Positions 4,083 through 27,295 of a stretch of 64,000 nucleotides of DNA are shown here, in pieces. Source of the stretch: a virus (lineage: Duplodnaviria; Heunggongvirae; Uroviricota; Caudoviricetes); the IMG/VR virus record IMGVR_UViG_3300047548_001872; one strand, 5' to 3'. Made by a program: the position numbers and the translations under genes. The number at the start of each line of letters is the position of its first letter. Position 1 is the first letter of the stretch. Below the pieces are notes generated by a model that was given only the letters and a program-made list of their open reading frames with translations, made no database searches and had not been told where the DNA came from.

Positions 4083-4409
4083 ATGAAGAAAACTGAGAAA
4101 AAGCAGCTCTATTTTAGCCCGAATGATGAGACAACTTGCCATGAGTTTGATTGGCTTTTAGCTGATTGCATTGCTGAAGCTAAGGATAATGGTGAAGATG
4201 AGTTTAAGCTGATTGAAGCAATTCCTGATAATAGCAATCATGATTATGTTTGGTGTACTCACTATCAAGAGGTTGTCGAAAGAGTCGACTGTAAAAAACA
4301 TATTTGCCCACATTACAAGTCAAAGAGTGGTAGGGGGGTGTGTCAACTTCGTGGGAACTTTTACTTGCACGGGAAGGAAGTAATTTTTAAGGTTAGCGAT
4401 TATGAGTGA
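4083..4409 (+). CDS. hypothetical Cys-rich protein
   Basis: Start at MKKTEKKQ (4083). Several Cys/His residues (C...C...CPHY). Confidence 0.45.
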   Translation: MKKTEKKQLYFSPNDETTCHEFDWLLADCIAEAKDNGEDEFKLIEAIPDNSNHDYVWCTHYQEVVERVDCKKHICPHYKSKSGRGVCQLRGNFYLHGKEVIFKVSDYE

Positions 4410-5256
4410 TGTTTTAGAAGGTAAAAAATATTTTAAAGCGATTATTCGTGTGGTCAAATCAATAGCATTTAAAAACCCTGATGAATACTTGGGATTTGAT
4501 ACTGTTGAAGTATTAAGAGAGCCTGTTATTTTAGCAAATGACAAAAACGAGGTTAAACAGTATTTGGCTGAAAAATACCCTCAATTTTTCCCAAACGCAA
4601 AGGTTTATGAGAGAGAGTCGAAAAACGACAAGACTCAATTCTTCTATGTTGTGATTTTCCCTTTATATCAATATGAAGTTAATCAAATCAATGAGGGCAA
4701 TTGGACTTGCGACTATTGTGGTCATGTACATGAAAACCAATACATTTCAAAACCATTGAGGAGCAATAAGTTTGAAGGCAAAATGTTTTGTTCAAGTGAC
4801 TACAAAAGCGGTAATGATATTTCTCAAGTTCCTGATTGTTATGAGCTTTGGAAAAGAGAGTATTACAAAGTAAATAATGGTTTAGAAATTCCCGATGACT
4901 TGAATTTTATAAACGTTGATTCGCTAAATTACATTTACAAAATCACCGAAAAATCAACGGGTAAATGCTACATAGGCAAAACAAGAAATGCTCCTTTTTT
5001 TCGTTGGTGGAATCACCTAAAGCATAGTAGCAGCCCATTTGGATTATACCTTAGACAATCGAAAATAAACGAATGGACTTTTGAGGTTTTAGAGGAGTTG
5101 CCTTCTAACATAGAAGATTCTGAAGTGTTTAGAATCGAAACGGAATATATCCAGAAGTATAACTCAGTTGCTAATGGATTTAATACTATTGTGTCGAACA
5201 AAAAGGCAATAAAATCAAATCAAATTGATTTGTTTGAAAACCAAGAAAACTTATAA
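4402..5256 (+). CDS. GIY-YIG nuclease domain protein (domain at the C-terminus)
   Basis: YIYKITEKSTGKCYIGKT...RWWNH...EYIQKYNSVANGFN has the GIY-YIG core motifs. The N-terminal ~170 aa carry CDYCGHVH. Confidence 0.6.
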   Translation: MSDVLEGKKYFKAIIRVVKSIAFKNPDEYLGFDTVEVLREPVILANDKNEVKQYLAEKYPQFFPNAKVYERESKNDKTQFFYVVIFPLYQYEVNQINEGNWTCDYCGHVHENQYISKPLRSNKFEGKMFCSSDYKSGNDISQVPDCYELWKREYYKVNNGLEIPDDLNFINVDSLNYIYKITEKSTGKCYIGKTRNAPFFRWWNHLKHSSSPFGLYLRQSKINEWTFEVLEELPSNIEDSEVFRIETEYIQKYNSVANGFNTIVSNKKAIKSNQIDLFENQENL

Positions 5257-5474: not shown

Positions 5475-5685
5475 TCATAAAAAGCTATCATATAATTGGA
5501 ATTTATCAGATACGGTTTTCACTAAAGACAAAGGTACTGTTTTCTCTTGTTTTTCGTCGGTGGGGGTTCTGTAATTTCACAATAAATGGCTCTCTAAAAT
5601 TAACCTCTAAAAAGCCTCTTTTTTCCGCCCATGTATTATTTTTTGATAATTTGTGGTGTACGGAATTTTAAAACAAGAAAACATT

Positions 5686-6168
5686 ATGAAGAAAATAATC
5701 AGAATTATAGCCTCGTGGTTTTTCAAAAACAACAAAACAAAAGAAGTCAAACCCGAAAGAACTGTTTTTTTGTTCCTCGATGATATTAGGATGCCCGTAG
5801 ATGCGTTTTCTTACACCAACAAGAAAATGTTCATTCAGGAAGATTGGGTCATTGTGCGTGACTACAATCAGTTTGTGCAGCATATTGAGCTAAATGGGCT
5901 ACCTAGGATGATTGCTTTTGACCATGACTTAGCTGATAGCCATTATACGCCTGAAGAGTTATGGACTGACTATGAAAAGTCAAAGGCTTGGCAAGAGCAG
6001 CAAGTACACAAAGAAAAGACTGGGTTTGAATGCGCCAAGTGGCTGGTTGAATATTGTGTTGATAATGATGAAGAACTACCTGATTTCTTTTGTCATAGCC
6101 AAAATCCCGTTGGTAAGGATAATATTTGTTGGCTTTTAAACAATTTTAAGGAACATCAAAAAAAATAA
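5686..6168 (+). CDS. hypothetical protein
   Basis: Start at the MKKIIR Met (5686) inside ORF 5653..6168. Confidence 0.5.
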   Translation: MKKIIRIIASWFFKNNKTKEVKPERTVFLFLDDIRMPVDAFSYTNKKMFIQEDWVIVRDYNQFVQHIELNGLPRMIAFDHDLADSHYTPEELWTDYEKSKAWQEQQVHKEKTGFECAKWLVEYCVDNDEELPDFFCHSQNPVGKDNICWLLNNFKEHQKK

Positions 6169-9541: not shown

Positions 9542-9604
9542 AACAATTTGATTTAAAACACAAAGTTGCTTTTTTTTCGCAAAAAAAACATTAAAAAAGG
9601 AATA

Positions 9605-9665
9605 TTTTTTGTTGTAGTAAAAACAGTTTTCTTATATTTGTACTAACAAATACTTAAACCTTTAA
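9605..9665 (+). promoter_or_regulatory. conserved phage promoter P2 plus leader
   Basis: TTTG at 9608-9611 and TATATTTG at 9633-9640. Leader GTACTAACAAATACTTAAA. Confidence 0.65.
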
Positions 9666-9670
9666 AAAAA

Positions 9671-9952: not shown

Positions 9953-10824
<872 letters not shown>

Positions 10825-10832
<8 letters not shown>

Positions 10833-11397
10833 TCAAACCCAACAAAACAAAGAAGCAATTCTTGCCTTCATTAACGAAAAGCTAATTGTTGACCGCTTCC
10901 CCGTTTCAAAAGAAATAAAACCTAATGGAAAACATTCTGATTGTAAGGTCATAATCAACGTTTCTGATGAGTTTTATTTGGGCAACTCCGAAGAAATTAT
11001 GCGCCAAGGAATTTTGAACTATTACTTCCCTATGGGAGAGTCAGGTGTCAATATGGGGATGAACTCTATATATGGAGCATTGCAGGTGCTTCATTCTATT
11101 TACACATGGAATCCTGATTGGAAAGTGCTTATCCATTGTCAAGCAGGCAAAAATAGAAGCCCAACAATCAAATCAGCTTTTTACTTCATGATGTTAAATG
11201 AGCATGAGCCTGATAAGACTAAAGAAGGAGGTAGAAATAATCGTATGATTGATAATTGCAACCGAGGTTTTTTGCCAGAACTTGTGAGAATGGAATTGTT
11301 CTTGCGAAAATGCAAGTTTGCCTTTGACAACCCTGAAAAGTTTTTTGGAGGGATGTTTGATTGGGCAATGTCAGACAAGCCAATTAATAAAAATTAG
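10825..11397 (+). CDS. dual-specificity/tyrosine protein phosphatase (CX5R)
   Basis: VLIHCQAGKNRSPT matches the VH1/DSP active site VxVHCxAGxxRS. Confidence 0.7.
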
Positions 11398-11409: not shown

Positions 11410-11649
11410 ATGTGTTATATTTTACTAATTAATTTAGGCGAAAAGAAAATTAAAACGCCAAGGCAGTTTTTAGAGCATTTTGGATTTGAAGGTACGAAGC
11501 GGTATATTTATCAATCTGTTGATTTAGATGGTTGTCTGTGCCAAGTGGATATTGATGATGCTTTAAAAACCCATTCCATTCCGTACAAAAGAGATTGTGG
11601 CGATTACTTTGTGGGTGAATTGGACGAGATTGTCGGTGATTCTGATTAA
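11410..11649 (+). CDS. hypothetical protein
   Basis: 79 aa. Confidence 0.45.
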   Translation: MCYILLINLGEKKIKTPRQFLEHFGFEGTKRYIYQSVDLDGCLCQVDIDDALKTHSIPYKRDCGDYFVGELDEIVGDSD

Positions 11650-11706
11650 AGGCTATTTTATGCCTTTTTCATTAGTATTTAGCTTAATGATTTAAAATTT
11701 AAAACG

Positions 11707-11916
11707 ATGGGGGTAGATACAAAAAAATTACTATTGGAAGTAAAAGACTTGCACAAGCATAGAGTTGAAGAAACAGTTTTGTTTGCAAGATGTGGCGCAA
11801 CTGACAAAGAAATGCGTTTGACATTCTATGGTGGTATTCAGGTTTTGCAAAACGGTAAGATTGTCCGAGAATTTGTGCAAGAGTTTCAGGCTGTAGAATT
11901 TTTTAATAGCTTATAA
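11707..11916 (+). CDS. hypothetical protein
   Basis: 69 aa. The stop abuts the TATAACGG box. Confidence 0.4.
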   Translation: MGVDTKKLLLEVKDLHKHRVEETVLFARCGATDKEMRLTFYGGIQVLQNGKIVREFVQEFQAVEFFNSL

Positions 11917-12006
11917 CGGTAGGCAGCTTGGCGACAGTAGCCGAAGCGTCGGCTTGCAGCGTTGGGGCTATTGCGCCAAACTGCGGTTATCGGCTGCCCT
12001 TCTTTT
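11917..12006 (+). other. GC-rich structured element (TAACG box plus nested stem-loops, terminator-like 3' end)
   Basis: Outer stem GGCAGC 11922-27 / GCTGCC 11993-98, inner GCCGA-agcg-TCGGC, then CTTCTTTTGG. Local GC far above the genome background. Confidence 0.45.
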
Positions 12007-12037
12007 GGAGTGATTAACAATTAAAACAAAAATACAA

Positions 12038-12403
12038 ATGGACAAAAACGAAATATTTCAATGCAATCAGATTATTGCACAATTCATGGGATGGACACCT
12101 GATGAAATTAGAATTTACATAGTTGGTAGAAATGGCAACATGGGGAAATTGGCTTTCAATGAAAGTTGGGATTTGCTCATGCCTGTAATTGAAAAGATTG
12201 AAAGCCTACCAACCAATAAGGAGGAAGGCGAGGAATATCAATTTAGTATTACAGGCGATGGCATTGCAATTACTCAATACGATGATGGCAGTGGCGTTAT
12301 TGCCAACAGAGTTAACGAAATCGGTAAAAGTAAACTAATGTCAGCTTTTGAAGTTGTGGCTGCTTTTTGCTGTGATTATCTCAAAGTTGAAAGGCGGTCT
12401 TAG
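12038..12403 (+). CDS. hypothetical protein
   Basis: 121 aa. Confidence 0.5.
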   Translation: MDKNEIFQCNQIIAQFMGWTPDEIRIYIVGRNGNMGKLAFNESWDLLMPVIEKIESLPTNKEEGEEYQFSITGDGIAITQYDDGSGVIANRVNEIGKSKLMSAFEVVAAFCCDYLKVERRS

Positions 12404-12461
12404 GGTTGCCGATAACGTGCGGGCGGTTGGCGCAGTGCGTATTACTAAAAACAAACTTGAT

Positions 12462-12749
12462 ATGAAAGCAGAAGAAATACTAAGGAGAATTGGATACGAC
12501 AATGATTCAATTACTTCAACAGAAAAATGGATAGCAGAAACAGTTTATAAACTTGCTATGGATGATGCAGCATCATTGCGCCAACCGCTTGTTAGCGGTT
12601 CGTTGCCGCCTGTTGACAATAGAGTGATGTTTGCTGATTATATACAACGTTGCGTAATTGAGAGGGGCGCTATGACTTACCCAAGTTTGCAGGATGCTAT
12701 TAAGGTGTGGGATGAAACTACAGAGAGGTTTAGTGGCAATGACCGCTAA
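12462..12749 (+). CDS. hypothetical protein
   Basis: Internal Met of ORF 12348..12749 chosen, downstream of the GC-rich 12395-12445 element. The stop lies within GCAATGACCGCTAACGTT. Confidence 0.4.
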   Translation: MKAEEILRRIGYDNDSITSTEKWIAETVYKLAMDDAASLRQPLVSGSLPPVDNRVMFADYIQRCVIERGAMTYPSLQDAIKVWDETTERFSGNDR

Positions 12750-12887
12750 CGTTATGCAACTTGGTGTCAGTTGCGGATTATGAAAACAGATTTTTCTATT
12801 TAAGAAAAAAGAACTTAAAAATTAGTATAAACAAAATACAGCAATTGCACCAAATTGCTGTTATAAGCAGGCTTTAAATATAATTTT

Positions 12888-13112
12888 ATGAATAGGTTAT
12901 TGATAAATATGAAAAATAAAGTAGAAACGATTAACGGGGCTATTGATATGATTTTTAGATTAAAAAAAGGCGAAAATATAAAACTAAATGGACTACATAG
13001 TTTTGAAGTTTCAATGGAAAACAATAAAGATTTCGATTACAATAAAAGATTATCGGAATTATACGAAGAACGCGAAAATTTACAAATCAGAATTATGCGT
13101 ATGGGTGGATAA
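12888..13112 (+). CDS. hypothetical protein
   Basis: 74 aa. Confidence 0.45.
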   Translation: MNRLLINMKNKVETINGAIDMIFRLKKGENIKLNGLHSFEVSMENNKDFDYNKRLSELYEERENLQIRIMRMGG

Positions 13113-13219
13113 GCTTGCTTATAACGGTTTGCAGATACACGCTGTGAGCGTTGGATTGAGCGTTGCAAAATAGCGTGTATGTGCTGTTAGTAGATGGCAC
13201 GGTTAATTAACGATAAAAT

Positions 13220-13606
13220 ATGATTATGAAACGAATACAAAGAAAGCGGACAAAAGGGTGGAAAATGCCCGAAAATACTGTTTATGTTGGCAGACCTACC
13301 AAATGGGGAAATCCTTTAAAATTGGTTGGAGATATTATTTACATAAATGCAAGTTGGAGAAGAAAGATTTTAGACCCGTGGGTTTACTTTAAGCAAGGAA
13401 CTATTGAAGATGTGGTAAAGTATTACGACTTGCTTTTAAATGGAGAATGGTTAGGAGATAACGAAGATATGAGATACTGGAATATTGAACTGCATAAGCT
13501 ACCAATACACGAGTTGAAGGGCAAAGATTTAGCTTGCTTTTGTCCGCTTTCTTGTGCTTGTCACGCAGATGTTCTTTTGAAACGTGTCAGTAGTGCTTTC
13601 TGCTAA
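13220..13606 (+). CDS. DUF4326-like protein
   Basis: KGWKMPENTVYVGRPTKWGNP ... DLACFCPLSCACHADVL resembles the DUF4326 signature as recalled from memory. Confidence 0.45.
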   Translation: MIMKRIQRKRTKGWKMPENTVYVGRPTKWGNPLKLVGDIIYINASWRRKILDPWVYFKQGTIEDVVKYYDLLLNGEWLGDNEDMRYWNIELHKLPIHELKGKDLACFCPLSCACHADVLLKRVSSAFC

Positions 13607-13687
13607 CGTTTTGCAGATTGGCGGTCGTTTTAATGCCGCCAATGTGCTGTTACCAGCAGTTAATATTCACAATTTAAAAACAGAAAT

Positions 13688-13915
13688 ATGATTTGGAATA
13701 AGATTGAAAACAAAAAGCCATTAGCCTACCAAAGCGGTGGATGGGATGGCAAAAAGAGCGACAAGGTATTAGTATGCACACGAAGCGGAAGATACTATGT
13801 TGCTGAAATGTATGAAGGTGTTTTAGATGGTAGCGAATTTTGTGACTTCTATGATGACCGAGATTTTGAGATAGAAAATGTGGCTTTTTGGACGGAGATT
13901 GACAGCCCGTTTTAA
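13688..13915 (+). CDS. small conserved protein, paralog of 3457..3684
   Basis: 75 aa, about 60% identical to 3457..3684. Confidence 0.55.
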   Translation: MIWNKIENKKPLAYQSGGWDGKKSDKVLVCTRSGRYYVAEMYEGVLDGSEFCDFYDDRDFEIENVAFWTEIDSPF

Positions 13916-13920
13916 TTGCT

Positions 13921-14056
13921 GGTAACGGCTGACGCTATACGAAGGCAGGGTTCAGATGCACTCCCTTTCAGCCTTTCACAATGATAAATAGATGCACACC
14001 GCTTGTATTAGCAGTACGCCCCTGCTTTTGTATAGCGTATGTTATAGGGCGTTTTT
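13921..14056 (+). other. large GC-rich structured RNA-like element
   Basis: 18-bp long-range stem CGCTATACGAAGGCAGGG (13933-50) / CCCCTGCTTTTGTATAGCG (14019-37) enclosing GATGCAC direct repeats, then GGGCGTTTTT. Confidence 0.45.
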
Positions 14057-14068
14057 AATTTAATTACA

Positions 14069-14290
14069 ATGTCAAAATTTACAATTTACAACGAAGATGG
14101 ATTTCCAGTAGGTAGCGTTAGAAAAGCATATCCTGTGAAATTTGTAGACCCGAAAAAAGAATACGAAGTAAGTTATCTTGCTCCGCACCAAAGTAAAAGT
14201 GGTGAACGGGAATCTGGAAATTTCACACTTAAAGGCGAAGATTTAACTGAAAATCAAATATGGCAGTTGTTTCTTCGGGAGGCTCTTTAA
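14069..14290 (+). CDS. hypothetical protein
   Basis: 73 aa. Confidence 0.5.
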   Translation: MSKFTIYNEDGFPVGSVRKAYPVKFVDPKKEYEVSYLAPHQSKSGERESGNFTLKGEDLTENQIWQLFLREAL

Positions 14291-14317
14291 AATGCCCTAT
14301 AACTCATCGCTAAGGAC

Positions 14318-14397
14318 ATATTTTACCGACTTATACATCTAAAATAAGGTAGATACCCTTGAAGCAAAGCCCTTTCTAATTGGGGGCTTTTTTTATT
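14318..14397 (+). other. conserved 3' element ending in an intrinsic terminator (copy 2)
   Basis: CATATTTTACCGACTTATACA...AAGCCC-tttctaatt-GGGGGCTTTTTTT. Homologous to 2769-2870. Confidence 0.55.
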
Positions 14398-14420
14398 GAT
14401 TTTTTTTAAAAAAAATGACT

Positions 14421-14480
14421 TTTTTTGTTGTAGCAAAAAATATTTATTTATATTTGTACTAACAAATACTTAAAACATAT
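14421..14480 (+). promoter_or_regulatory. conserved phage promoter P3 plus leader
   Basis: TTTG at 14424-27 and TATATTTG at 14449-56. Leader GTACTAACAAATACTTAAA. Confidence 0.65.
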
Positions 14481-14483
14481 AAA

Positions 14484-14735
14484 ATGAACTCATCTGAAAC
14501 CCCAATCTTGTGTGCCGAACACTCAAATGGAGCATTCAAAAAAACCTACATTATGTTCGTTAGAAAAGAAAATCCTTCCGCTAATAACGGGAACAAACCC
14601 TCTTTTGTTAAAGAAAAATTACCTACAAGTGACAAGAGTTTTTTGCAAAAGCAGAACTTTTACATTCGCTTGGTTGCGCTTGCCTTTGTTTACTTCTTTT
14701 GTAGATTTTGGGCTGGAATATTGTTTAATGTTTAA
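14484..14735 (+). CDS. hypothetical protein with hydrophobic C-terminus
   Basis: 83 aa. An alternative overlapping frame exists at 14512..14751. Confidence 0.35.
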   Translation: MNSSETPILCAEHSNGAFKKTYIMFVRKENPSANNGNKPSFVKEKLPTSDKSFLQKQNFYIRLVALAFVYFFCRFWAGILFNV

Positions 14736-25338: not shown

Positions 25339-26127
25339 ATGATACCGATTTCACAATCTTTTTTAAAAGCGTTTAATGATATGCGCTTAGGCAATGAATG
25401 TGGATTGGTGGTCAAGGCTAAATACGTTGATAAAACTTTACAAGGTGTTCCTTCAGAGGTAATGGAGTTAGGTCATTTCTTTGAATTTATGGCTACGGGA
25501 AGTTTACCTCGTGATGGTAGAATTCCGCAAGCAAAATTAATCAATCAGGGGAAGCCAAATCAACGCCTATCCGAAGACTACCAAAGAGCAATGGATTCAG
25601 CCATGTATTTCAAGGAGGTAATTCAGTATTACGGCATAAATATCGTAGAAACGGGCAAGGTAATTACTCAGCAGGGCATGACTGGTATTTTGGATATTTT
25701 AGCGAATTGGAACAATCGAGTTTCAATTATTGACACAAAATACAGTGGATTACTCGAAGACCGATGGAACGATATGGGTTGGCACATTGATTCACTCCCA
25801 GATAAACACAAACTCATGATTCAAGGAGTTCACTACAAGATTTTGATGTCTTTAGAGTTAGGTTGCGATATCAACGATGTTGATTTTTACTTTTTTGTGT
25901 TTGATTCTAAAAGCCCAAGAAACGCCAAAATAATTAAACAAGAGGTCGATGAATTAACTTTGCAACAGCACTTGAAGGTTGTCGAGTTTGTAAAGAAGGA
26001 GCTTGAGAAGCCTCACGAAATAGTTTTCAAGGCAAGACCATCGTTAAAATTATGCAATGACTGCTTGCTCAGAAATAATTGCGATTTCAAGGTGGAATTT
26101 CCTCCAATAGAACACGTTTTATATTAA
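25339..26127 (+). CDS. PD-(D/E)xK nuclease, Cas4/RecB-like exonuclease with Cys cluster
   Basis: GILDIL...VSIIDTKYSG (D...D/E-x-K) plus N-terminal Cys and C-terminal CNDCLLRNNC. Confidence 0.5.
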   Translation: MIPISQSFLKAFNDMRLGNECGLVVKAKYVDKTLQGVPSEVMELGHFFEFMATGSLPRDGRIPQAKLINQGKPNQRLSEDYQRAMDSAMYFKEVIQYYGINIVETGKVITQQGMTGILDILANWNNRVSIIDTKYSGLLEDRWNDMGWHIDSLPDKHKLMIQGVHYKILMSLELGCDINDVDFYFFVFDSKSPRNAKIIKQEVDELTLQQHLKVVEFVKKELEKPHEIVFKARPSLKLCNDCLLRNNCDFKVEFPPIEHVLY

Positions 26128-26256: not shown

Positions 26257-26493
26257 ATGTCAGAGCTAAAGGACTTTATACAGCAGCAAATTTCAATTAC
26301 TTCCTCGGAAATAGTTGAGCTAACAAAACTCAAAAATAATTACGTGAAGTTTGCTTATTCCGAAACTTTGAATGGTCGCATGAGAAAAATTGATTTTGAA
26401 CACTTGATAAATGAGGTTCAAAATATTGCTTTGCAAATTGCAAAACTTGAAGAAATATTATCAGATTACAACAAACACTTTAATGTATTTTAA
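26257..26493 (+). CDS. hypothetical protein
   Basis: 78 aa. Confidence 0.4.
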   Translation: MSELKDFIQQQISITSSEIVELTKLKNNYVKFAYSETLNGRMRKIDFEHLINEVQNIALQIAKLEEILSDYNKHFNVF

Positions 26494-26494
26494 C

Positions 26495-27295
26495 ATGTCA
26501 AACTTGCCTGCAACATTAACAAACAACTTCAATGAGGGTATTCAAAAATATGAATCCACAAGTCTAACCGAATTATTGTCTGGAAGTGGGGTAACTCCTC
26601 AAAAATTCAAGCATGTATTGCATCAGGAATTAGAAAGGTCTTTACAACTCCAAGAGGCATTTTCCTTAAACCCAGCTTCTTTTTTCGCTACGGCTTTATA
26701 TTGTGCTGAACTAAATTTATCACCCTCCAGTTTGGTCGGTGAATTCTTTTTCAACGTTTCCCATAATAGGATATCTCCTATTTTGGGCTATAAAGGATTA
26801 GTAACTCTTCTGTCAAGGAATAGTCAAGTGAAAAAAATATGGTCGGAAGTCGTTTATGAAGATGATGACTTTGAGTATGAGTTAGGTCTTGAGCCTAAGT
26901 TAATGCATATACCTAATCATAATGCTTCAAGAAAAAGTAAAGACATCAAGTATATTTATGCTTGCGCCAAACTTAATGATGAGGTTTCTTTCAAGGTTAT
27001 GTCGCTCCGAGAGATTAAAAGCATTATCGATATTATTGAATTGCCAAGCGAACTCTATTTTAATGATACCCTTGACCCAGAAAAATGGATGCTAAAAAAG
27101 GTTGTCTTAAAGCAATTATCAAAACTTCTGCCTAAAGAGGATGACCGATTGAAAAAAGCCATTTCTTATGATGATAAAATCGAAGGAGGTGCTTATTTGG
27201 TTTTAGACGAAAATGATTCAGTAAAAGTTGTTCAAGGAACAATCGTGAATAAAAAAGGGGGAATCTACCAAAGTATTTTAGGTGGCAAAGATTAA
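26495..27295 (+). CDS. RecT-like single-strand annealing protein
   Basis: Start at MSNLPAT (26495). LGYKGLVTLLSRNSQVKKIWSEVVYEDDDFEY resembles the RecT core (gY.Gl..la.rsg....i...VyegDeF). Confidence 0.55.
   Translation: MSNLPATLTNNFNEGIQKYESTSLTELLSGSGVTPQKFKHVLHQELERSLQLQEAFSLNPASFFATALYCAELNLSPSSLVGEFFFNVSHNRISPILGYKGLVTLLSRNSQVKKIWSEVVYEDDDFEYELGLEPKLMHIPNHNASRKSKDIKYIYACAKLNDEVSFKVMSLREIKSIIDIIELPSELYFNDTLDPEKWMLKKVVLKQLSKLLPKEDDRLKKAISYDDKIEGGAYLVLDENDSVKVVQGTIVNKKGGIYQSILGGKD

Follow-up and report, generated by a model that had tools for sequence, protein, structure and literature searches.

Integrons are considered to be a device of bacteria (and, since recently, of archaea), and the cases found in phages have been read as borrowed attC sites. 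Between the R and L boxes of an attC site lies an unpaired central spacer of roughly symmetric shape, the L box carries extrahelical bases, and the site is cut in the 5' ..AA|C box of its folded bottom strand. Xer recombinases can also act on folded single-stranded DNA, as on the attP hairpin of CTX-phi, and the pdif modules of Acinetobacter plasmids are Xer-dependent; these systems rely on the host XerC/D and dif-like 28-bp sites. In the present work, we analyzed a stretch of 64,000 nucleotides ('the window', 64 kb) from a Caudoviricetes virus (IMG/VR record IMGVR_UViG_3300047548_001872), in which small genes are separated by GC-rich hairpin elements that start with a TAACG box.

In integrons, it is the bottom strand of attC (antisense to the cassette open reading frame, ORF) that folds and recombines, with the crossover at G|TT of the 3' box, and in the cassette the ORF comes first, followed by attC (PMC8876359, PMC9892861). 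A passage of PMC9668308 that cites Messier and Roy 2001 describes the integrase, IntI, as a tyrosine recombinase with an additional domain around patch III. Clusters of attC sites lacking an integrase (CALINs) have been listed in phages by Qi et al. 2023 (PMC9892861). The promoter early stem-loops (PeSLs), to which an initial annotation had likened the boxes of the window, are composites of sigma70-type promoter and terminator motifs that recombine by homology (PMC2839356; PMC4122927).

The window has a G+C content of 35%, tightly packed small ORFs and a phage-like content, including genes for RecT, a PD-(D/E)XK nuclease, a GIY-YIG protein and SLT lysins, and matches to PHROG families. It is a Bacteroidota phage genome of the lytic type, two stretches of which are divided into 11 one-gene cassettes. 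We conclude, with a probability of roughly 0.65, that each TAACG box forms the 5' foot of a structure-specific recombination site, a functional counterpart of attC, and that these sites belong to an integron-like cassette system borne by phages. On the best reading of the data, they mark off 11 promoterless single-gene cassettes, arranged in two arrays, each at the distal end of an early operon.

Structure of the hairpin elements

Eleven hairpin elements are present in the window, all on the same strand, in array A (847-2757) and array E (11914-14303). The six boxes of the initial annotation were found within 1 nt of their reported positions (TAAC at 11914, 12413, 12747, 13122, 13604, and 13923), and folding confirmed a strong hairpin behind each of them. 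They had been taken for a single array, the five elements at 847-2543 having been missed. The box is a real signal of the element, but it represents only the 5' foot, since each element is closed by an equally invariant GTTA. The general formula is TAAC-G-N3-4-(covarying stem with variable loop)-N0-1-GTTA, with a 5' linker of 5 nt (G-K-T-T-K) and 0-1 nt on the 3' side before GTTA. The irregularities of the stem are fixed mismatches and G.T pairs, not bulged bases. The elements span 48-208 nt and fall into length classes of 48-49, 60-90, and 120-130 nt. The loops are AT-rich; the long ones, rich in A, are built of degenerate ~19-nt repeats similar to the 5' leaders of the phage, and the ORF that follows often has its start codon in them. 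In the 120-130-nt class, the ~70-nt loops keep their length while diverging in sequence, and carry about three degenerate repeats, AGCAC(A/T)AAAnTTGAATA, similar to the 5' leaders found at ordinary genes. The orientation of every element is that of the genes, and no U-tract (T-run) was found after their hairpins.

A covariance model was trained on 73 elements, 4 of them from the window; in this alignment, compensatory changes were observed for 18 of 18 stem pairs. The model identified 10 sites in the window at 40.8-85.8 bits (E values of 5e-7 to 1e-17), all on the + strand, while the next best match on either strand scored 15.9 bits. These matches are far above chance, and 6 of the 10 sites were absent from the training alignment. 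The eleventh element, E2 (12413-12594), was weakly recognized (12.2 bits) and was defined by a 17-bp helix and by the pairing of its flanks (see below). In 123 further elements, from loci fetched with a recombinase protein (see below) rather than with hairpins, the stem cells were Watson-Crick pairs in 1912 cases, G.T in 105, and A.C in 14. TAAC and GTTA end all 166 elements collected, but the collecting scan required both; beside the feet, where conservation is independent of the scan, it amounted to 89% for G5, 92% for T-5, and 92% for A-11. The proposal that the hairpins are a conserved, structured punctuation of an accessory-gene array is supported.

Complementarity of the flanks across each gene

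The 11 nt behind each GTTA (X) are reverse-complementary to the 11 nt in front of the next TAAC (X'), and not to the flank of their own hairpin. In the window, 108 of 121 positions pair in this way across 11 genes (mean 9.8/11), a total that was reached in 0 of 200,000 permutations, while the two flanks of the same element pair at chance level (5.1/11). The rule was also observed in 116 consecutive pairs from about 30 unrelated contigs. Positions 1-5 formed Watson-Crick pairs in 83-84% of these, against 27-51% after shuffling; position 7 was a G.T wobble in 76%, its T being 97% conserved; positions 8-11 were paired in 67-78%, and pairing was random past position 11. This pairing places every gene between GTTA-X and X'-TAAC, the signature of integron cassettes, and the layout of a cassette is hairpin - GTTA - X (11 nt) - cargo - X' (11 nt) - TAAC. 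One and the same X/X' pair encloses unrelated inserts in cassettes A-4 (2277-2454) and E-2 (12595-12746).

The non-Watson-Crick pairs indicate which strand folds. Read on the sense strand, G.T pairs outnumbered A.C pairs by 9:1 in the flank stems of the window, by 19:2 in those of a related array (L002, see below), and by about 80 to about 12 in the hairpin stems of the 73 elements. Some wobbles occupy fixed positions (GTTA-N6-G / T-N6-TAAC, and GAAG/TTTT). When folded with DNA parameters, the sense strand was the more stable one in 7 of 10 window elements. The G.T excess and the stability of the sense strand therefore argue that a single strand folds, namely the coding strand, which could be RNA or sense-strand DNA.

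Linkage to a tyrosine recombinase

In several related loci (L033, L035, L071, L115, and L144), a gene encoding a tyrosine recombinase of 266-277 aa lies directly downstream of the array, on the same strand. Its best matches are XerA and XerD, with the structures of which it aligns contiguously. With the integron-integrase model TIGR02249 it gave 164 bits, in two pieces, versus a cut-off of 265, and in comparison with IntI4 it is shorter by about 43 residues, exactly at the IntI additional domain. We retrieved 187 relatives of this protein, independently of any hairpin, and searched the 80 viral loci among them. The hairpin scan found 154 elements upstream on the recombinase strand versus 9, 13, and 10 in the other three sectors, and 134 of 134 covariance-model matches were upstream on the recombinase strand. 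In nearly all of these loci, a hairpin-less array-terminal site, X'-TAAC-TAYTATATGTA, is found about 70 nt before the ATG of the recombinase. Two loci from metagenome-assembled genomes (MAGs; L145 and L153) contain larger integrases; these are of another type, in convergent orientation, and were not counted as linked.

An 'empty cassette', GTTA-TGGCA-TCGTTTTAATG-TGCCA-TAAC, was observed upstream of the recombinase gene in L115 (4490-4547) and in L167. In it, X and X' pair directly around the loop sequence of the minimal hairpin, just before the terminal site.

Movement of whole cassettes in related phages

With identical recombinase genes and flanks, two loci, L163 and L164, contain the same cassettes (99-100% identical) in a different order. 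Each permuted block starts precisely at a hairpin's TAAC (6756, 7062) and stops at the following TAAC; homology of the left flank ends at position +6 of the first TAAC and that of the right flank begins at the terminal TAAC. Among loci with a 100% identical recombinase, four different sequences abut the terminal TAAC. In unrelated phages, blocks of homology were found to begin at TAAC+0 in at least six cases; they span the hairpin, GTTA, X, and about 10 more nt, after which the cargo diverges. The same hairpin and leader are thereby joined to unrelated cargo, for instance a 77-aa protein in L002 (18444-18750) and a 243-aa N6 DNA methyltransferase in L040 (5078-5900). The leader encoded by the hairpin in these two loci is an N-terminus of about 22 aa, M..K.DLK..TP.FGNVLLG.VP, fused in frame. 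Because the blocks start at TAAC and the hairpin precedes the cargo, the unit of recent movement is hairpin-first, an integron cassette in mirror image. A hairpin-last arrangement with crossover at G|TTA, as in canonical integrons, was ruled out, since the blocks, from TAAC onward, include the hairpin and extend into X.

The arrays are accessory. L002, in which an AAA protein is 50% identical to the one of the window, carries about two dozen elements, in an array of ~10 kb, between its AAA and DUF932 genes. L011 and L013 have only a gap of about 90-190 nt at this place and L014 has other, hairpin-free genes there, no hairpin element being found at the AAA-DUF932 site of these three loci. Both comparisons, of L002 with L011, L013, and L014 and of L163 with L164, a kind of check that had been proposed with the initial annotation, show differences at the boxes. 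The suggestion that the boxes accompany modular gene shuffling is thus upheld, as related phages gain, lose, and permute whole units exactly at these sites.

Proposed mechanism

In the mechanism that we propose, X would pair with X' in a circularized cassette, rebuilding one long hairpin with a 15-bp basal helix that includes the conserved G.T wobble. A small Xer-family tyrosine recombinase, which we infer from the related arrays and not from this phage, would then exchange strands at the invariant TAAC core; the partners would be two hairpin sites, or one hairpin site and the array-terminal X'-TAAC-TAYTATATGTA, and cassettes would in this way be excised, inserted, and reordered. The substrate would be sense-strand DNA. 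Like the bottom strand of attC, the folded strand would be cut in its 5' box, at ..TAA|C, but here this is the coding strand. Such a cut would make cassettes hairpin-first and new ones would enter at the recombinase-proximal end of the array. The breakpoints at the 5' TAAC agree with the finding that the sense strand folds. The arrays of the window, presumably active now or formerly, are accompanied by no recombinase in the 64 kb and have another end motif; they would be either served in trans or relics of the CALIN type. The initial annotation had also considered that the boxes are nuclease target sites, which would be right in spirit if the enzyme is a recombinase; roles in RNA processing or termination, which it named as well, may exist. 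In a secondary role, the A-rich loop or the leader after X would carry the start codon, and could thus provide a context-independent translation start for each promoterless cargo.

Several points weigh against this proposal. No recombinase gene was found in the 64-kb window (the source contig being 101 kb long), and the window arrays end in a CATATTTTACCGACTTATACA motif, not in TAYTATATGTA. The recombinase of the related loci could be an ordinary lysogeny integrase, the attP site of which borders the moron region by chance. Some (older) blocks of homology end at GTTA, meaning that crossovers are not limited to one foot. The foot consensus is biased, as the patterns used to fetch many of the comparison loci came from E4 and E5. 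When folded as DNA, the hairpins have only moderate stability, and the advantage of the sense strand amounts to 2-3 kcal/mol, in 7 of 10 elements. The sense-strand G.T bias, the conserved wobbles, and the start codons in loops suit a function at the RNA level equally well. Finally, a predicted attC site of Polaribacter phage P12002L (P12002L_attC1; PMC9892861) belongs to the present family, sharing its foot and its loop with E5, and it was the sole one of six sites for which no recombinants with IntI1 were verified (PMC9892861). This failure counts against IntI, however, and not against a dedicated enzyme.

A possible function at the RNA level

The alternative that fares best is that the elements act primarily on polycistronic early mRNA, where the hairpin and the 15-bp X:X' stem would insulate each cistron, shuffling being a by-product of recombination between conserved sequences. 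Variants of this idea are that the start codon is displayed in the A-rich loop (Bacteroidota do not use Shine-Dalgarno initiation), that RNA ends are protected, or that the hairpins are processing marks for an endonuclease. The folded strand is indeed that of the mRNA, as judged from the excess of G.T over A.C in both flank and hairpin stems and from the wobbles at fixed positions; the elements are all co-oriented with the genes, the loops look like 5' leaders and often contain the ATG, and stem-loops of attC RNA are known to modulate translation of the downstream cassette (PMC8876359). This alternative leaves unexplained, however, why the invariant 4-nt core recurs in a site that has no hairpin and lies beside a recombinase gene, why 134 of 134 matches lie upstream of that gene, why cassettes that are 99-100% identical are permuted with junctions at TAAC, and why related phages are devoid of any element. 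Furthermore, X, X', and the 3' arms are located inside ORFs and would be melted during translation, and no Rfam family was matched: the search, one of the checks put forward with the initial annotation, gave no gathering-level match in the 64 kb and, for 11600-14500 at E<=5, chance-level matches only. A search for tRNA and tmRNA found none. We consider it unlikely that RNA is the primary level of action. A role of this kind (presentation of start codons, insulation of cistrons) is compatible with recombination and may coexist with it; alone, it fails to account for the linkage to the recombinase and for the permutations.

Organization of the two arrays

The elements, cassettes, and end modules described in this section are all on the + strand. 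Array A starts with element A0 (847-971; 48.8 bits, E 6e-9, outside the training set), the 5' box of which is degenerate (TATC for TAAC) and the 3' foot of which, GTTA, is at 968-971. The body of cassette A-1 (972-1185) consists of X (972-982), an ORF of 58 aa (999-1175), and X' (1175-1185), with flanks pairing at 10/11 positions. It is followed by A1 (1186-1313; 128 nt), a member of the training set scoring 85.8 bits, with a 21-bp helix and a DNA folding z-score of -3.9, and by the body of A-2 (1314-1775: X 1314-1324, ORF 1341-1766 of 141 aa, X' 1765-1775; pairing 9/11), the product of which had no Pfam match. Element A2 (1776-1896; 121 nt, 52.3 bits, E 9e-10, outside the training set) contains in its loop the ATG (1830) of the ORF of cassette A-3 (body 1897-2159), which extends from 1830 to 2162 (110 aa), reaching from the A2 loop into the box that follows and ending at its TAA; the flanks of A-3 (1897-1907 and 2149-2159) pair at 11/11. 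The array continues with A3 (2160-2276; 117 nt, 52.7 bits), the body of A-4 (2277-2454), with an ORF encoding a hydrophobic 49-aa product (2301-2450), A4 (2455-2543; 89 nt, 57.4 bits, E 6e-11, outside the training set), and the body of A-5 (2544-2757; ORF 2517-2750, pairing 11/11). A-5 closes at an array-terminal TAAC (2754-2757) without a hairpin behind it. An ORF located directly 5' of the array (46-822) encodes leucine-rich repeats of the BspA type (LRR_5, E 1e-20).

The left boundary of array E is element E1 (11914-11989; 76 nt, 40.8 bits, E 5e-7, outside the training set), followed by the body of E-1 (11990-12412: X 11990-12000, ORF 12038-12403 of 121 aa, X' 12402-12412; pairing 10/11), whose product had no Pfam or PHROG match. 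E2 (12413-12594; 182 nt) is atypical, with its 17-bp helix formed between 12419 and 12590 and a 134-nt loop that contains the ATG (12462) of the ORF of E-2 (ORF 12462-12749, 95 aa; body 12595-12746); its GTTA (12591-12594) was set by the pairing of its flank with 12736-12746. E3 (12747-12863; 117 nt, 79 bits) is a training-set member. The initial annotation had described local hairpins; the hairpin of E3 that is consistent with the family is much longer than this, GCAACTTGGTG pairing with CACCAAATTGC and not within 12756-74, and so is that of E2. The body of E-3 (12864-13121; ORF 12888-13112, 74 aa, pairing 11/11) precedes E4 (13122-13189; 68 nt, 42.8 bits, E 1.5e-7), and that of E-4 (13190-13603; pairing 10/11) carries an ORF (13220-13606, 128 aa) encoding a DUF4326 protein (Pfam E 1e-18). 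E5 (13604-13652; 49 nt, 41.4 bits, E 3e-7) is a minimal form with the loop TCGTTTTAATG, followed by the body of E-5 (13653-13922; ORF 13688-13915, 75 aa, pairing 11/11), E6 (13923-14044; 122 nt, 60.6 bits), and the body of E-6 (14045-14303; ORF 14069-14290, pairing 11/11), which closes at the array-terminal TAAC at 14300-14303. DUF4326 was the sole match when the cargo was scanned against Pfam and PHROG, and a DNA search of INPHARED with the element region gave no match. The stop codons of the upstream ORFs had been placed inside the boxes; this holds for three of the six (11916, 12749, 13606), the other three stops lying 8-17 nt upstream of TAAC.

Both arrays finish in the same way, with a hairpin-less TAAC, a conserved ~40-nt motif (GCTAA..CATATTTTACCGACTTATACA), and a GC hairpin with a T-run (2758-2872 and 14304-14395). 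The end module of array A (2758-2945) thus contains the ..CATATTTTACCGACTTATACA motif, a terminator-like hairpin, and a promoter-like TTGTTGTA-N17-TTATATTTGTACTAAC, and that of array E (14304-14465) the motif, a terminator-like hairpin with a T-run, and a promoter-like motif in the same order. The CATATTTTACCGACTTATACA motif was not found in 239 other loci and may serve this phage as an array-terminal site of its own. The promoter-like motif, TTGTTGTA-N17-TTATATTTGTACTAACAAA, occurs at 2929, 9633, and 14449 only and nowhere inside the arrays. In an extended form, TTTTTTTGTTGTA-N17-TTATATTTGTACTAACAAA(C/T)ACTTAAA, it is present in three copies (2895-2960, 9600-9670, 14415-14483), about 30 nt before an ATG. 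It is of the Bacteroidota type (TTG ... TAnnTTTG) and probably marks the early transcription units of the phage. No motif of the TTG..TAnnTTTG type and no copy of the phage promoter motif was found in or beside the elements, from which we infer, on the basis of motifs, that the cassettes are promoterless. Both arrays are at the distal end of an operon, located between the promoter at 9633 and a terminator. The stable hairpins of the elements have no T-run and ORFs read through several of them; hairpins with a T-run are found only at the array ends.

Between the arrays are genes resembling those of RNA-end processing (5653-6168, 9956-10507, 10497-10832, and 10825-11397), with matches to cREC_REC (a cyclic-phosphate processing receiver), a Rv2179c-like 3'-5' exoribonuclease, Janus/Ocnus (weak), and a DSPc-type phosphatase. 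In L002, too, a DSPc gene is present, as the first one of the array. A gene for a free-standing GIY-YIG (SegE-like) endonuclease is likewise present (4402-5256), with a related one in L013.

These data bear on the second alternative, that the elements are regulatory cassettes like PeSLs, with promoter and terminator motifs, shuffled by homologous recombination, for example by the RecT and exonuclease of the phage. As in T4-type phages, stem-loops flank small nonessential genes (ORFans in the window) in hyperplastic regions, and gains, losses, replacements, and indels between relatives are bounded by the motifs. The conserved feet of about 15 nt could offer microhomology, and the phage does encode RecT (26411-27295) adjacent to a PD-(D/E)XK nuclease (25339-26127, weak match) in a RecET-like module. 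PeSLs, however, have a strong sigma70-type promoter and a functional terminator, whereas the present elements have neither a promoter motif, in or near them, nor a U-tract. Their stems covary instead of being conserved, so that identity between elements is limited to a few nt, and exchange by homology does not predict the X/X' pairing, the fixed G.T wobble, or the link to a site-specific tyrosine recombinase and its terminal site. The PeSL analogy is therefore quite improbable as a mechanism. The anatomy fits that of integron attC sites better, because of the TAAC/GTTA feet, the complementarity of flanks across genes, and the Xer/IntI-type recombinase with its own terminal site. What the initial annotation had observed is thus confirmed and extended, while its interpretation is partly supported.

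Comparison with integrons and related systems

Like attC sites, the elements are imperfect palindromes in which only the ..AAC and GTT.. ends are invariant, stem and loop being variable in length. As in integrons, cassettes are promoterless, contain one gene, and have one orientation, and the start of the cassette is complementary to the box at its end; related arrays lie beside a gene for a tyrosine recombinase of the Xer/IntI clade and a hairpin-less primary site. The cargo is rich in orphan DNA methyltransferases, a feature that Qi et al. noted as well (PMC9892861). The third alternative is accordingly that these are canonical attC sites (CALINs) borrowed from bacteria and recombined by a host IntI. 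The AAC...GTT palindromes, the promoterless arrays, and the flank rule agree with it, and HattCI called a member of the family, that of Polaribacter phage P12002L, as attC (PMC9892861).

The differences are nevertheless numerous. P12002L_attC1 was alone among the six tested sites in not being recombined by IntI1 (PMC9892861). The internal loop is asymmetric (5 nt versus 0-1 nt), in contrast with the symmetric unpaired spacer and extrahelical bases of attC, and the basal helix of the circular form would comprise 15 bp with a fixed G.T wobble, versus a 7-bp R box. The G.T pairs are on the sense strand, not on the bottom one, so that here the coding strand folds; breakpoints are mostly at the 5' box and cassettes are hairpin-first. 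The recombinase (266-277 aa) lacks the additional domain specific to IntI, and its gene and the terminal site are downstream of the array on the same strand, while those of integrons are upstream and divergent. The hosts, moreover, are Bacteroidota. The system is not a canonical integron, since it fails on spacer geometry, folding strand, crossover side, integrase domain, and the position and orientation of the recombinase gene, and we give very little credit to the view that its sites were simply borrowed.

With CTX-phi and pdif, the elements would share the action of an Xer-family enzyme on a one-strand hairpin, or the movement as modules of genes bracketed by inverted Xer sites. They differ from them in that the recombinase of related arrays is phage-encoded and in that the hairpins are long, variable, bounded by TAAC and GTTA, and arranged in tandem arrays. 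That the hairpins are plain intrinsic terminators or attenuators between moron genes can hardly be maintained: they are GC-rich and directly follow stop codons, but T-runs are found behind the hairpins at the array ends and not behind these, ORFs start inside several loops and read through 3' arms, and termination has no need of conserved feet or paired flanks. Two further candidates were rejected, hairpin ends of the IS200/IS605 type (TnpA) or REP/RAYT elements, as no HUH transposase was found and X/X' pairing is not predicted by them, and N4-like hairpin promoters, which would fold from the template strand, whereas the G.T bias is on the non-template strand.

Distribution and cargo

The family is present in many uncultivated phage contigs of low G+C content and in Bacteroidota MAGs. 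A search with the foot pattern yielded more than 20 further low-GC viral contigs with arrays on one strand, and a stricter pattern matched 19 genome contigs, nearly all of them Bacteroidota MAGs. Copies of E4 that are 88-97% identical were found in more than 15 other contigs, homology stopping at TAAC and GTTA. E5 is 100% identical in L021, L031, L049, L124, and L145, loci that had been selected with the E4 and E5 patterns, with flanks differing on both sides, and E6 is 89% identical to elements of the recombinase-linked arrays L209 and L178. A search of viral contigs with the AAA protein found no relatives, and Polaribacter phage Leef_1, whose integrase is 32% identical, contained no elements. 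Some array-bearing contigs also share an unrelated conserved block, gttagctgctatTTTACCGACcactccgaaagtttagacttgacaat, at L033(-) 2860, L089 4197, L141 1257, and L206(-) 6199.

Methyltransferases are the commonest cargo (20 genes in 11 loci), five N6/N4 DNA methyltransferases being present in the L002 array. The cargo of E-5 (13675-13912) is 83% identical at the nucleotide level to a gene of an ordinary operon in L006 (11585-11823), which has no hairpin, X, or X'. The comparison hints at a possible snapshot of the genesis of a cassette.

Significance

It is perhaps an even bet that Bacteroidota phages carry a gene-capture platform of their own, convergent with integrons or anciently related to them. 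This platform would consist of a minimal Xer-like recombinase, a terminal site, and sense-strand, hairpin-first cassettes doubling as portable translation-start modules, and would let phages exchange methyltransferases with an anti-restriction role, along with further small accessory genes. The nearest earlier account is that of Qi et al. (PMC9892861), and the full-text literature searched contained no description of the recombinase-linked system. The covariance model, together with the TAAC...GTTA and flank-pairing rule, can be used to annotate cassette boundaries and candidate anti-defense genes in thousands of uncultivated Bacteroidota phage contigs. If our proposal is true, the recombinase and its hairpin would make a compact pair for engineering, and structure-specific single-strand recombination sites would have arisen or diversified outside the IntI lineage, which bears on the origin of integrons from Xer. 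It would also provide a concrete mechanism for the rapid turnover of accessory and anti-defense genes in the hyperplastic regions of phage genomes.

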